A stretch of DNA of 30,325 bases from a virus. Location: UHGV virus genome UHGV-0061407; one strand, given 5' to 3'. A program made the position numbers and the translations under genes. Below, piece by piece: positions 9,252 to 13,276 of the stretch. Under the pieces are notes generated by a model. The model had not been told where the DNA came from. It did not search any database and saw nothing but the letters and a program-made list of their open reading frames with translations. The stretch's first letter is position 1. Each line of letters begins with the position of its first letter.

Positions 9252-9365
9252 AGTTACCGCCTCCGATGAAAGATCGGGAAGCTGTGTGTTTGAAAGGGGT
9301 CAGGCCCGTCAGGCTGGATTTAACAACGAAGCGTGTCGATGATGATTCCTGCGGGACCTGATAAT

Positions 9366-9389
9366 AAAAAAGCCATGCAAATGCATGGC
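9366..9389 (-). terminator. Intrinsic terminator (minus strand): gccatgca-aa-tgcatggc followed by U-run
   Basis: Perfect 8-bp stem 9372-9379/9382-9389; plus-strand A-run 9366-9371 gives a T-run on the minus strand. Confidence 0.45.
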
Positions 9390-9493
9390 CTTGTGATTTG
9401 AATCCGTTATTTACAAAATGTATTCGAGACAGTATCTTTCGACTTCCGGACAAAAAAACATATACCGGGACAAAATCTAAATGTAACTGCCTT

Positions 9494-9554
9494 GCCTGCA
9501 TGAAACCATGCGGGCTTTTTTTTTGCCCAAAGAAAAAGCCCACCGAAGTGGGCC
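9494..9554. terminator. Back-to-back terminator hairpins (plus-strand hairpin + T9; minus-strand hairpin ggcccac-uucg-gugggc + U5)
   Basis: Plus: stem 9494-9502/9507-9515 (one G-U), loop aaac, T-run 9516-9524. Minus: stem 9538-9543/9548-9553 with UUCG-type loop, followed by T-run (complement of 9531-9537). Confidence 0.5.
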
Positions 9555-9927
9555 TTACAGCTATCATCATTTTTTATTAGGTGTGGTGCCGGGTGCCTCC
9601 CGGTAAGTCGCCGCCAGTCCACAGACGACTCGCAATGCGCAAAAAAACATATCAGACTGGCAATGCCCCTCCGCATAGGGGGATTCACCACACGGATAAT
9701 TTAGGATGTAGTCATAGGCGGCGTCAATAACTGACACTCTGTCAAAGGCACCATTACGATGCCTTTTGCACAGTGCTAATCACTGGCTCTAATAAGGGGC
9801 CAGAGCAAAGCGATTACCCCGGCTACCAGCACTCCATCAGCCAGGATTGACATCATTTTGCTGGTGAAGTCGATAGCAACCACCAGAAACAAAAGCACCC
9901 CAGCTGCGGCCCAGCGAAGTTTACCGA

Positions 9928-10353
9928 TCACAGGTACTGGTCTAGTGGAAGTTGCAGAGCCTGGGCAATTTTCTTCAGCTGTTTCTCTTCTTCTTCCCCG
10001 ATGCCGTCGTTATCAGCTACATCAAGACACAGGCAAAGAACATCGACAGCGTCATCCGTCCCGGCAACATCAGCCAGTTCGCGCAGCGCCTGAGCGTTGG
10101 CTGAACGCGGTGATGCTTCATAGCGAGCGCGAATATTCGAACTCATCTGGGCAATTTCACCAGCAAATGGCGCGAATGCCGGGAGGGCCGAAATAGTCTT
10201 CTCCAGCACTGCAATCTCTTTTGCATCGCAGGTACCATCGGCGTATGCAATCGAGTACGCTCCCCAGACCGTGGCTTCTACGGCATCGCGGTTTTCCATT
10301 TTTTTCACTTCAACAACGGCTTTACGGGCTTTCTTTTTAAAAATACCAAACAT
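9928..10353 (-). CDS. TerB-like (tellurite-resistance TerB family) protein
   Basis: 141 aa; two repeats of the TerB-like pattern (AYADGTCDAKEIAVL and LDVADNDGIGEEEEKQLKKIAQAL) matching what I recall of TerB (a.aDG...eE...l..ia..l). Confidence 0.6.
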   Translation of the reverse strand: MFGIFKKKARKAVVEVKKMENRDAVEATVWGAYSIAYADGTCDAKEIAVLEKTISALPAFAPFAGEIAQMSSNIRARYEASPRSANAQALRELADVAGTDDAVDVLCLCLDVADNDGIGEEEEKQLKKIAQALQLPLDQYL

Positions 10354-10485
10354 AGTGACTTTCCTTTTAGCGGGTGAGCCAGCGCTCAGGAATGATCAGC
10401 CCACAGAGACAGTCACACTGACTATTCCCTATGGCTCACCCCTGAAAGGCTCTGTGGTTAAATAACGCCGAGCGTGGCGCAGATA

Positions 10486-10510
10486 CGAAAAAGGCCCGCG
10501 TATGCGAGCC
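10486..10510 (-). terminator. Terminator-like hairpin downstream of the methyltransferase gene
   Basis: 7-bp stem with one mismatch (10493-10499/10504-10510) followed on the minus strand by a T-run (complement of 10486-10491). Confidence 0.3.
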
Positions 10511-10796
10511 TGGTGGATCCGCTTACTGATACGGAGCGACCAACCTAAGTTGTCGTAGATTCAAATTGTGGCCCTGCTTTTAAGTCACTTTGCGGTCAGC
10601 TGGGACATGTAAGTTACGCATTGTGATCGGGATTCGCTTCAGACGCTGGCCCCGCAGCCATATAAGTGCCGGTTACGGTTCCGGCCAGGTCTCTTCCTCA
10701 ACAGGTTATTCTCCATACGGATTACCGTTTGTTGGTCGTTCCAGCGATCTCAATTTTCCGGTTACGTTTATCCGGCGGCTTACGCCCGGTTAAGCC

Positions 10797-11876
10797 CTAA
10801 GGTAAGGGATTTGGTTGTGGTGGCCGGTGCTCCAGCAAATTACGCATTTCACTGACCGTCTGTTCAAATCTCTCGGTTTCCAGTTCGACACCTAGCCCCC
10901 TTCGCCCGAGAAGAGCAGCCTGCTTGAGCGTTGAGCCTGATCCAAAAAAGAAATCAGCTACAACATCACCCGGGCGGCTACTCGCTGTGATTATCTGCTC
11001 CAGCATATCCGCAGGCTTTTCACATGGGTGTTTACCTGGATAAAACTGAACAGGCTTATGAGTCCAGACGTCGGTATATGGCACCGTGACTGATACGCTG
11101 AATGGTCGCCGTAAACGGTAATATTCCTGCTGGAGTTCAGAATATTTTCGGCTTAACGATTGCCAGGTGGCGACAAGCTGGTGGTGAGGTTTTCCCAGTT
11201 CGTTGCGCGAGTGCTTATCCATGGCGATTTTTTGAAACAAAGCCTGCAACTTTAAATAATCGGCTTCGTTCGGTAGCTGCCACTGACTAAGGCCAAACCA
11301 GTGGGAAACCATATTTTTCTTACCTGTGGCTTCTGCAATCTGAGCCGACGTCACGCCAAGAGATTCCCGTGCATCACGGAAGTAAGAAATTAAAGGCGTC
11401 ATGACGTGTTGCTTTAACTCATTACACTTTGCGGCATATCCATCGTCTTTGGGCCTGTATGGCCCCTGATAATGGTCGGCAAAAATGATACGCTCAGTGG
11501 CAGGGAAATAAGCGCGTAAGCTCTCCTTATTGCAGCCGTTCCATCGCCCTGATGGCTTAGCCCAGATGATATGGTTGAGCAGGTTAAACCGCTCTCTCAC
11601 CAACAGCTCAATATCCGCTGCCAGGCGGTGCCCACAGAACAGATACATGCTGCCGGCAGGTTTTAACACTCGCCAGAACTGTGCCAGACAGCTATCCAGC
11701 CAACGTAAATAGTCTTCGTCCCCCTTCCATTGGTTATCCCAGCCGTTTGGCTTCACCTTAAAATAAGGCGGATCGGTAACAATAAGATCAATGGAGTTAT
11801 CGGGTAGCGATGGGAGGTATTGCAGGCAATCAGCATTGATTAAATCAATACTGGATATTTTTACAGTATTTTTCAT
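10797..11876 (-). CDS. Orphan DNA methyltransferase, beta-class amino-MTase (N6-adenine or N4-cytosine)
   Basis: 359 aa; motif IV DPPY (LIVTDPPYF) near N-terminus and AdoMet motif I (DFFFGSGST) near C-terminus, the order typical of beta-class MTases; no adjacent restriction endonuclease ORF. Confidence 0.85.
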   Translation of the reverse strand: MKNTVKISSIDLINADCLQYLPSLPDNSIDLIVTDPPYFKVKPNGWDNQWKGDEDYLRWLDSCLAQFWRVLKPAGSMYLFCGHRLAADIELLVRERFNLLNHIIWAKPSGRWNGCNKESLRAYFPATERIIFADHYQGPYRPKDDGYAAKCNELKQHVMTPLISYFRDARESLGVTSAQIAEATGKKNMVSHWFGLSQWQLPNEADYLKLQALFQKIAMDKHSRNELGKPHHQLVATWQSLSRKYSELQQEYYRLRRPFSVSVTVPYTDVWTHKPVQFYPGKHPCEKPADMLEQIITASSRPGDVVADFFFGSGSTLKQAALLGRRGLGVELETERFEQTVSEMRNLLEHRPPQPNPLP

Positions 11877-12025
11877 AGATCAGTAAGCGTAACTCTGATA
11901 GGCTCACTTTGCTTTTGCGCTAAAGCAGTGGGCCGTGGTTAGCTTGTGACCTGAAAGCATGAGCTGATGGCTGGCCGGGTGCTACAACACCCACCAGCCG
12001 CCCATTTTCACAGCAAAAGCCCCCA

Positions 12026-12217
12026 TTACTGGAGGCGCTTATAACATCCGAACTGATAATCAGATAACCCCGCCATTACCAGCTGCGTAAGTATGAACTG
12101 GCAGCGTTCGCGGCTCAGGTGAGTATTCTGAGCAATCTCCCAAGCCGTAGCCGGTTTGTTACTTAACTCATCAAAAACAGCCTTGGCTGTTTCCGTCATA
12201 TCTTGCTGATTTAGCAT
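12026..12217 (-). CDS. Hypothetical small protein (possible winged-helix)
   Basis: 63 aa from internal ATG with GAGG RBS (track ORF 12026..12277 begins upstream of this); first gene after the tR'-like terminator. Confidence 0.4.
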   Translation of the reverse strand: MLNQQDMTETAKAVFDELSNKPATAWEIAQNTHLSRERCQFILTQLVMAGLSDYQFGCYKRLQ

Positions 12218-12320
12218 GTCTTTTACCTCAAATAAGTTGCGTGACATACAGATAACTCTGGTGACGGTATCCAGCAAGAAGTAATTGAAAGAGAAGAAGA
12301 TTTTATCGATTTTAGCCCAT

Positions 12321-12345
12321 AAAAAAACCCGCTCGCTGGCGGGTT
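12321..12345 (-). terminator. tR'-like intrinsic terminator immediately downstream of the Q-dependent promoter
   Basis: Minus-strand hairpin cccgc-cagcga-gcggg (extended by A-U pairs) followed by U7 (plus-strand A7 at 12321-12327). Confidence 0.55.
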
Positions 12346-12370
12346 AATCAACGTTGAACATACAAAGCCC

Positions 12371-12411
12371 ATCGTTATAAATAAAATTACACAAAAGCGG
12401 CAACTTTGCAA
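12371..12411 (-). promoter_or_regulatory. pR'-like late promoter with sigma-dependent pause element (qut-like region)
   Basis: Minus strand: -35 TTGCAA (12406-12411), 16-nt spacer, -10 TAATTT (12384-12389), then AACGATGGG (12368-12376), which matches the pause-inducing AACGATGGG motif I recall from lambda pR'; located within 60 nt of the Q stop codon. Confidence 0.5.
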
Positions 12412-12427: not shown

Positions 12428-13276
12428 TTATGCGATATTTATCAAATCAGACACCTTTGTCACACGTTTAAGCTGTGAGTCGGTATAACTCTCTTCCTCA
12501 AAGCATTTTGTAACCAGACTTTCATAGAAAGGTTTCCAGCTATATCGCCAGGTACGTTCTGGCAGACCAGGCAGCTCAGAGAGCATGCCCCTGTATGCAT
12601 TCGAAGACTTAGGACGACTGTAACCGCGGCCTTCACAACGTTTACATATTTTGTAGACAGGCACTCCCTGCAGCTCTGACTCTTTACGGTCCAGGGTTTT
12701 TCCCGTACCGCCACACTGACATCGCTTGCTGATTTTCCCGGTGCCGCCGCATTTGAAGCAGAGAACATGGTCAACCTCTTCCACCTGACGTTTTACTTCA
12801 AAATCCGAAGGTGACTGCCTGAGGTCTTTTGCCCATTGCGGTAATCTCATTGTGTAGTGGCTTTTTTCCACCATTGAGGTTTTTTTTATGAAGCCTGAAC
12901 CAGAACACTTCCGGCAATCTACGCTGTCAGCTGCAGACGAGGCATAGTCGTTATAAGCGAACCGAGCTATTATCAGCATACACAGCGGGAACTTCTTCCC
13001 TGCTGCTTTTCTTATCGAACGAGGCGCTTTTGATTTTGCATATTCAGCCAACCAACTGACGGATGCCTTTCTGTCATGTTCGCTGATTCCAGCTTTACCC
13101 AAAAACATTGACAGGCCTATTCCTGCCTCTGCCTGTGTCATCCCCAGAGCCGCCATTACATCTGTCACAGTAAGTTGCTCGCTGGCGGTTGCACGACCGC
13201 TATCGGAAATATGCATTCCTTTGGGCGCGAAAAATTTGGGAATTGATTCAATATTCATGCTCAGTACTCCATACAC
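12428..13276 (-). CDS. Q: Late-gene antiterminator Q (lambda-Q family)
   Basis: 282 aa; segments read as clearly related to lambda Q as I recall it: GRATASEQLTVTDVMAALGM; ARFAYNDYASSAA; zinc-finger-like CRKCSGSG and CKRCEGRGYSRP; C-terminal PERTWRYSWKPFYESLVTKCFEEES. Confidence 0.85.
   Translation of the reverse strand: MYGVLSMNIESIPKFFAPKGMHISDSGRATASEQLTVTDVMAALGMTQAEAGIGLSMFLGKAGISEHDRKASVSWLAEYAKSKAPRSIRKAAGKKFPLCMLIIARFAYNDYASSAADSVDCRKCSGSGFIKKTSMVEKSHYTMRLPQWAKDLRQSPSDFEVKRQVEEVDHVLCFKCGGTGKISKRCQCGGTGKTLDRKESELQGVPVYKICKRCEGRGYSRPKSSNAYRGMLSELPGLPERTWRYSWKPFYESLVTKCFEEESYTDSQLKRVTKVSDLINIA

Follow-up and report, generated by a model that had tools for sequence, protein, structure and literature searches.

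The late promoters of lambdoid phages are the closest described systems to the locus analyzed here, and the reference for them is the Q-dependent regulatory cassette as defined in PMC9388147. The lambda late promoter (NC_001416) reads TTGACT-N17-TAAATT-TGACTC-AACGATGGGTTAATT, and AACGAT at lambda +1 to +6 is a -10-like sequence that is bound again by sigma70, giving rise to a pause at +16, with the GGG that follows it resembling a discriminator (Strobel and Roberts, PMC4005639). Lambda Q binds a 13-bp asymmetric site, contacted by its helix-turn-helix body at positions 1-4 and by its arm at positions 11-13 (Yin et al., PMC9388147), and repositioned sigma region 4 binds a -35-like element and touches the tip of the Q arm (PMC9388147). 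The RNA 5′ end threads the Q torus by about 15-16 nt (Yin et al., PMC9388147), Q-modified complexes are out of the pause by about +25, and some 20 bp past the pause site tune Q-dependent escape (PMC4005639). Short late-promoter RNAs are known for phages 21, phi80, 82 and P22, and in Stx phages the terminated pR′ leader, StxS, is made in lysogens (PMC7547250).

The present study analyzes a 91-nt module on the minus strand behind the Q gene of virus genome UHGV-0061407, the whole 30,325-nt stretch of which is referred to below as the window. The closest phage record, Klebsiella phage Kp4866-6, is 98.5% identical and is unannotated. Our results indicate that the 91-bp stretch is very probably an ordinary Q-dependent late-promoter/pause/terminator cassette from a lambdoid Enterobacteriaceae (pro)phage whose Q is of the phi80-type, long-arm form.

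Compared with lambda pR′-qut-tR′, the locus has the same Q family, the same order of elements, the same pause element (AACGATGGG) and the same 27-bp offset from a TTG(A/C) block to that element. It differs in having a leader of about 56 nt rather than 194 nt, a promoter spacer of 16 rather than 17 nt, 7 rather than 6 nt between the -10 hexamer and the pause element, no TTGACT beside the pause element, and a Q protein that carries an arm insertion of about 66 aa lacking in lambda Q. The spacer sequence itself is unrelated to that of lambda, which implies a different Q specificity. The P-late/gene 23/t-late region of P22 has a lambda-family Q (gp23), the pause element AACGATGG and a compact leader of about 59 nt, as here, but its Q is of the short-arm lambda type, its spacer is lambda-type, TTGACT is present, and its terminator hairpin is stronger (-18.7 kcal/mol). 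At phi80 pR′ (Q protein gp17) the likeness lies in a long-arm Q of the same length class and 42% identity, a TTGCAT -35 hexamer and 7 nt between the -10 hexamer and the pause element; this promoter is the source of a short late-promoter RNA, and the leaders of its clade, at 69-74 nt, are compact like the one here. The phi80 record (NC_021190) carries annotations for promoter, Q site and terminator, and the elements annotated in it and in the P22 record have the order and place seen here, but phi80 differs in its pause element, AACGCTGGG, and in the sequences of its spacer and leader. Phages SfV and mEp460 and the Qin prophage of E. coli K-12 (ydfT-quuQ) have nearly the same transcribed leader, AACGATGGGCTTTGTAT...CGTT...AACCCGC-loop-GAGCGGGTTTT, but their Q proteins are only about 35% identical, the spacer between -35 and -10 is unrelated, and 7-12 nt are inserted before the hairpin.

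Anatomy of the segment behind the Q gene

A sequence-only reading of the window had called the Q protein lambda-type, and homology searches bear this out. The protein matches Pfam PF03589 (E 1.3e-45), named as the lambda Q family by Yin et al. (PMC9388147), is 31% identical to lambda Q by BLASTP (E 1e-39), and matches lambda Q in PDB entry 7ubm at E 2.8e-43. Its N-terminal, torus-forming segment is strongly conserved. Alignment with the Q proteins of phi80, Gifsy-2 and lambda locates the insertion of about 66 aa, relative to lambda Q, to residues ~116-182 of the zinc-ribbon arm, where it adds a second CxxC...CxxC pair and brings the number of Cys motifs to four in all. The long-arm Q is common to phi80, Gifsy-2 and several Klebsiella phages, and the Q proteins of lambda and P22 are without the insertion.

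The module begins 17 nt past the Q stop codon (Table 1). The same reading had described TTGCAA-N16-TAATTT-AACGATGGG followed by a hairpin and U7 after that stop, a description exact to the base on the minus strand, and it had correctly identified AACGATGGG as the lambda pR′ pause sequence, to whose +1 to +9 (NC_001416) the element is identical. It had also proposed an alignment with lambda pR′, which gives TTGACT-N17-TAAATT-TGACTC-AACGATGGG in lambda and a matching order of elements. Within the 30-kb window AACGATGGG has a single exact match, where about 0.2 would be expected by chance for a 9-mer; the match is regarded as more than chance because it occupies the lambda-equivalent position after the -10 hexamer directly behind Q, recurs at the same offset in relatives, and belongs to a module that is conserved as a whole.

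The -35 hexamer annotated in phi80 (TTGCAT) is at the same position as TTGCAA here. A consensus promoter scan did not call this promoter, which is attributable to its weak hexamer matches (TTGCAA 4/6, TAATTT 3/6, together 7/12, with no extended -10). The start prediction is based on spacing and on lambda, in which +1 is the first A of AACGAT (PMC4005639), and the BLAST homology with E. coli prophage leaders starts exactly at 12376, the first A of the pause element. An alternative -10 hexamer, TATAAC (12379-12374) with TTGCCG as its -35, was considered and rejected, being unconserved (relatives have GTTAAC, ATTAAC or CTTAAC) and having C at -7.

Table 1. Coordinates of the Q gene, the module behind it and the genes that follow, in window positions.
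Feature	Position	Strand	Basis or remark
Q antiterminator gene, 276 aa	12428..13258	minus	ATG at 13258, GGAG Shine-Dalgarno upstream
Q stop codon TAA	12430-12428	minus	read from sequence
-35 hexamer TTGCAA of the predicted late promoter (pR′ equivalent)	12411-12406	minus	sequence; invariant in 50/50 distinct relatives
Spacer, 16 nt, AGTTGCCGCTTTTGTG; putative Q-binding element	12405-12390	minus	sequence
Conserved spacer block TTGCCG	12403-12398	minus	
Conserved spacer block TTTTGTG	12396-12390	minus	
-10 hexamer TAATTT	12389-12384	minus	sequence
TATTTAT, 7 nt between -10 and pause element	12383-12377	minus	sequence
Predicted transcription start	12376-12378	minus	most likely A12376, 8 nt past -10; A12378 possible
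Sigma-dependent pause element AACGATGGG	12376-12368	minus	AACGAT 12376-12371 (-10-like) and GGG 12370-12368 (discriminator-like)
Conserved initial transcribed region, 22 nt, CTTTGTATGTTCAACGTTGATT	12367-12346	minus	highly conserved in relatives
Predicted sigma70-dependent pause / Q-loading position, ~+16/+17	12362-12359	minus	analogy with the lambda +16 pause (PMC4005639)
tR′-equivalent intrinsic terminator	12345-12321	minus	stem AACCCGC/GCGGGTT, loop CAGCGA, U7
First gene past the terminator, 63 aa	12026..12217	minus	ORF, weak winged-helix hits; own terminator 12036-12019
N6/N4 DNA methylase	10797-11876	minus	Pfam N6_N4_Mtase; then terminator 10511-10492
TerB-like protein	9928-10353	minus	Pfam TerB
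51-aa hydrophobic ORF	9776-9931	minus	

The terminator hairpin, AACCCGC-CAGCGA-GCGGGTT at 12345-12326, was called by a terminator scan, and its 3′ arm merges into T7 at 12327-12321. With its tail it has a minimum free energy of -10.7 kcal/mol, versus -18 to -27 kcal/mol for P22, phi80 and lambda, and so modest a hairpin may allow some Q-independent readthrough. A second difference concerns the -35-like element that adjoins the pause element and in lambda docks sigma region 4, which is absent from the window. The sequence before AACGAT is TTTATTTAT in the window (also written TAATTTTATTTATAACGAT), TTGACGTT in relatives (also TAAATTTGACGTTAACGAT) and TTGACTC in lambda. Lambda and P22 have TTGAC. 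Within the Q clade the element is polymorphic (window 12377-12383 versus L034-L079): relatives at about 78% Q identity carry it (TTGACGTT or TTGACATT), the 88% Q subclade (TTTAATCTT) does not, and the window's subclade (TTTATYTAT) has lost it. Since phi80 and Gifsy-2 are also without TTGAC, the element is dispensable in parts of the family and there is no family-wide requirement for it. The loss of TTGAC and the weaker hairpin are the differences from lambda that might matter, and together with the weak promoter hexamers they count against the reading as a Q-dependent cassette.

If the module operates as a Q-dependent cassette, sigma70 RNA polymerase would start from TTGCAA-N16-TAATTT directly downstream of Q, at about A12376, and the non-template AACGAT and GGG at the start of the transcript would be bound again by sigma region 2, leading to a pause at about +16/+17. 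When Q is absent, the polymerase would escape and terminate at the hairpin and U7 (12345-12321), yielding an RNA of about 54-56 nt. When it is present, Q would bind the spacer element between -35 and -10 and engage the paused complex; by homology with lambda Q it would form a nozzle on the RNA-exit channel, and the polymerase so modified would read through this terminator and those that follow it ahead of the lysis and morphogenesis genes. Promoter activity, start site, pause position, binding of Q to the spacer and Q-dependent readthrough are all predicted here from homology and conservation.

Conservation of the module and its spacer

Relatives were taken as 80 viral contigs with Q proteins 75-99% identical to that of the window, comprising 50 distinct modules with a proximal terminator. 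In about 70 of the 80, the 9-mer and Q are the same distance apart as in the window. Over 74 related loci the median identity to the window was 87% for the module, versus 45% for third-codon positions of Q and 57% for the next 100 nt. At loci where the third-codon positions of Q are saturated, at 42-49% identity, the 91-nt module is still 80-89% identical, a level about that of codon positions 1 and 2 of Q at the same loci. Identity is down to 50-57% in the 100 nt past the U-run, and this collapse of similarity shows that the module ends at the terminator and that mosaic cargo begins there.

Patterns of variation within the module differ by element. The 50 relatives show little or no variation in the whole -35 hexamer, in TTGCCG and TTTG of the spacer (both invariant, 50/50), in the stem or in the U-run. 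The -10 hexamer keeps T-12, A-11 and T-7 in at least 90% of them, with a variable middle (TAAATT, TATATT, TAGATT). In the pause element A1, A2, A5, T6 and GGG are invariant, and variation of the hexamer is confined to positions 3 and 4 (AATGAT, AACAAT, AATCAT); across the wider family, with AACGAT, AATGAT, AACGCT, AACAGT and AACACT, A2 and T6 are always kept, and these are the bases captured by sigma region 2 in -10 recognition. Further into the transcribed region G+14 and T+15 are invariant in relatives and the neighbouring positions nearly so. The terminator loop varies freely, including by 1-nt indels, and the stem is conserved, while divergent members have other stems that are still paired, e.g. 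CCTCACC/GGTGGGG. Maintenance of the stem was judged by inspection, as the stem is nearly invariant in the MAFFT alignment and the divergent stems are misaligned there, leaving covariation uninformative.

Three contigs (L038, L062 and L081) keep the promoter and pause element and have no proximal terminator, diverging about 25-30 nt past the pause element; their leaders must be longer or differently terminated.

An early-operon terminator has to be weighed at this point, i.e. a hairpin that merely ends the operon containing Q, with promoter- and pause-like sequences that are fortuitous or vestigial. Such a reading would fit the weak hexamers and the position of the hairpin, only about 85-110 nt past the Q stop, but it does not sit well with a 9/9 match to the lambda pause element in an equivalent register, with purifying selection on the -35, spacer, -10 and pause element and variation of the kind typical of sigma recognition, or with the annotation of the same layout in phi80 and P22. 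We consider it hardly probable at all. The segment was also compared with translation-coupled attenuators of the Trp-leader type and with coding sequence, given a sub-threshold Rfam hit to Trp_leader (RF00513; 12319-12408, 25 bits, E 0.066) and a 62-aa ORF at 12223-12411 in the ORF list. The score is far under the gathering threshold of 41 bits, however, there is no leader peptide with regulatory codons in the segment, and the 1-nt loop indels and complete divergence past the U-run in relatives are incompatible with a conserved reading frame, so that we consider this explanation refuted and its probability negligible.

The preferred reading, a Q-dependent late-promoter cassette, gives the spacer a particular role. 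The distance from the start of TTGCCG to the pause element downstream is 27 bp, as it is for the TTGA block in lambda, even though the two phages differ in the lengths of the spacer (16 nt here, 17 nt in lambda) and of the interval between the -10 hexamer and the pause element (7 versus 6 nt). Variants with a 1-nt insertion carry it between the -35 hexamer and TTGCCG, and the offset is preserved. Phages with other Q proteins (SfV, mEp460, phi80, Gifsy-2 and lambda) have spacers unrelated to this one, even though the leader or the -35 hexamer is similar (SfV, phi80, lambda), and the phi80 record has its Q site annotated at the location of the spacer here. We infer that TTGCCG...TTTTGTG is a Q-binding element that changes with the Q clade, and the mapping of sub-sites within it is of the same standing.

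The transcribed leader

Leader length was counted from base 1 of the pause element to the last base of the first terminator U-run, inclusive. By this measure the predicted leader is 56 nt here, and leaders of the window's clade are 53-64 nt with a mode of 56 nt. The P22 leader is about 59 nt (annotated RNA 5′ end 37887, t-late 37917-37945), most contigs with a lambda-identical Q have leaders of 55-60 nt, and the Gifsy-2 and phi80 clades have leaders of 59-73 and 69-74 nt, respectively. The 194-nt leader of lambda (6S RNA) is an outlier. The sequence-only reading had placed the terminator close to the predicted start, and its distance is indeed about 32-56 nt; shortness relative to lambda 6S RNA (56 versus 194 nt) also stood, but not the idea that it is remarkable, as short leaders are the rule in the Q lineages surveyed. 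Compactness is a family norm and not novel. The survey covered five Q-lambda lineages with a lambda-like pause element, together with single phage records, and left a sixth lineage, ST405phi1.3, unscored. Short late leaders of about 55-75 nt predominate in the surveyed lineages, and the textbook 194-nt 6S RNA of lambda is atypical. By analogy with lambda the short geometry should be workable mechanistically, since the 5′ arm of the terminator starts at +32 from the predicted start, beyond the exit from the lambda pause at about +25.

A regular-expression survey of the ST405phi1.3 clade gave 0/80 for a lambda-like pause element with the expected spacing, and the clade may use a different register. 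Its members (ST405-OXA48phi1.3 clade, L249-L328 and L085, L086 and L088; Q about 41-45% identical) have TATATT, then 3 nt, then AATCGTGGA, and an interval of only 3 nt points to a pause element of another register or type.

The leader predicted for the window (12321-12376) is nearly identical in SfV (L414, ~1320-1384), whose Q is 35% identical to that of the window, in mEp460_ev081 (L420) and in the cryptic Qin prophage of K-12 (L421, 6357-6423, minus strand), where it lies downstream of ydfT/quuQ. A BLAST search located it, without annotation, in 290 of 5426 complete E. coli genomes. The leader is kept almost unchanged in prophages of Klebsiella, Citrobacter, Leclercia, Shigella and E. coli whose Q proteins are predicted to differ in DNA specificity, and matches to the promoter core extend to Citrobacter, Atlantibacter, Phytobacter and Leclercia genomes. 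At Qin an abundant "orphan" Term-seq 3′ end has been reported at NC_000913.3 1642356 (minus), with two entries of average read counts of about 103,600 and 55,400 (Adams et al. 2021, eLife, supplementary file 1). The U-run of the Qin copy ends 4 nt before this position, which demonstrates directly that the terminator family works in vivo and that RNA ending there accumulates; 3′-end formation in vivo is thus shown at the homologous, Qin terminator. A search of the Cappable-seq supplement for a mapped start of the Qin transcript gave no entry where one was expected.

These observations raise the question whether the terminated leader of about 56 nt, besides being a by-product of the switch, could be a small RNA of the Hfq type that the prophage produces constitutively and that acts in trans, like StxS. 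In its favour, the block from pause element to U-run stays conserved where Q has only about 35% identity and the spacer is unrelated (SfV, mEp460_ev081, Qin), recurs in E. coli genomes in the number given above, ends in a hairpin and U-tail, and yields the abundant orphan 3′ end in its Qin copy. There is precedent in StxS (PMC7547250) and in lambda 6S RNA, for which Hfq binding and RIL-seq partners have been described (bioRxiv 10.1101/2024.10.31.621285). StxS, compared with the leader here by description, differs in being processed from a 258-nt primary transcript to 74 nt, and Hfq binding and targets have been shown for it. On the other hand, conservation over +1 to +30 is explicable by constraints at the DNA level (the pause element and an initial transcribed sequence that tunes escape) or by recombination at the shared 9-mer, the leader matches no Rfam family, its fold is no better than that of shuffles (z = -1.5), and it shows no covariation relative to shuffle controls. 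The lambda and P22 leaders likewise match no Rfam family. Taken together, we think it unlikely that pause element, about 25 conserved nt and terminator form a portable RNA cassette whose 55-67-nt product would act as a constitutive regulatory RNA of lysogens. As the same leader is present in K-12 Qin, the question can be tested with existing K-12 tools.

A conserved 5′ stem, pairing AACG with a downstream CGUU, for which a family-level change from G:C to A:U was suggestive, was dropped as unsupported; the 4-bp stem was no rarer than in shuffles in 13 of 16 lineages, its fourth pair is broken in 17 of 50 relatives, and judged by shuffle controls it does not covary.

Downstream genes and late transcription

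Genes for RusA, KilA-N and DUF968 proteins lie 5′ of Q on the minus strand. Past the module, the region at 9776-12217 (minus), between the terminator and the lysis cassette, consists of moron-like cargo genes (Table 1). Late genes follow on the same strand: further downstream are a match to STnc100 and genes for a holin, a GH108 endolysin, TerS, TerL and portal (by Pfam, and by Rfam for STnc100). Between the module and the holin gene the minus strand has at least four more terminator-like hairpins, and further terminators before the late genes make this a setting that needs a processive antiterminator.

In some relatives a tRNA gene is positioned close behind the late terminator, as in Stx phages (L087, 2246-2318; L017, 5422-5494; L420, ~1460-1540), and it is absent from that position in the window.

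The match to STnc100 (RF02076) is strong, at 99.8 bits, and occupies 9525-9722 on the minus strand (flanks 9365-9760), between the cargo genes and the holin gene. TTGACG-N18-TAAATT (9727-9698) is found at its 5′ end, and terminators follow at 9556-9535 and 9392-9369. Klebsiella phages KPP5665-2 and ST405-OXA48phi1.3 and Escherichia phage SaltyDalty likewise have STnc100 between Q and their lysis genes, and the family is related in the literature to PasD small RNAs.

It could be argued that TTGACG-N18-TAAATT, 2.7 kb downstream of the module, is the operative late promoter for lysis and structural genes and that the module behind Q controls only the cargo. The site is promoter-like (9/12), two terminators come after it shortly before the holin gene, and in other phages, too, STnc100 is seen ahead of lysis cassettes. 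However, there is no pause-element-like sequence and no adjacent Q gene at this site, the distance from STnc100 to Q is variable (215-1000 nt in L085, L086 and L088), and STnc100 has been described in the literature as a prophage small RNA; moreover, Q-modified polymerase is processive over kilobases (PMC9388147), so that one cassette suffices. This arrangement is very unlikely in our estimation.

With the module behind Q as the probable site of late control, a previously unannotated Klebsiella-type prophage gains a precise late-gene switch, which helps to predict the timing of expression of its cargo, including the DNA methylase and the TerB-like protein, and of its lysis genes.
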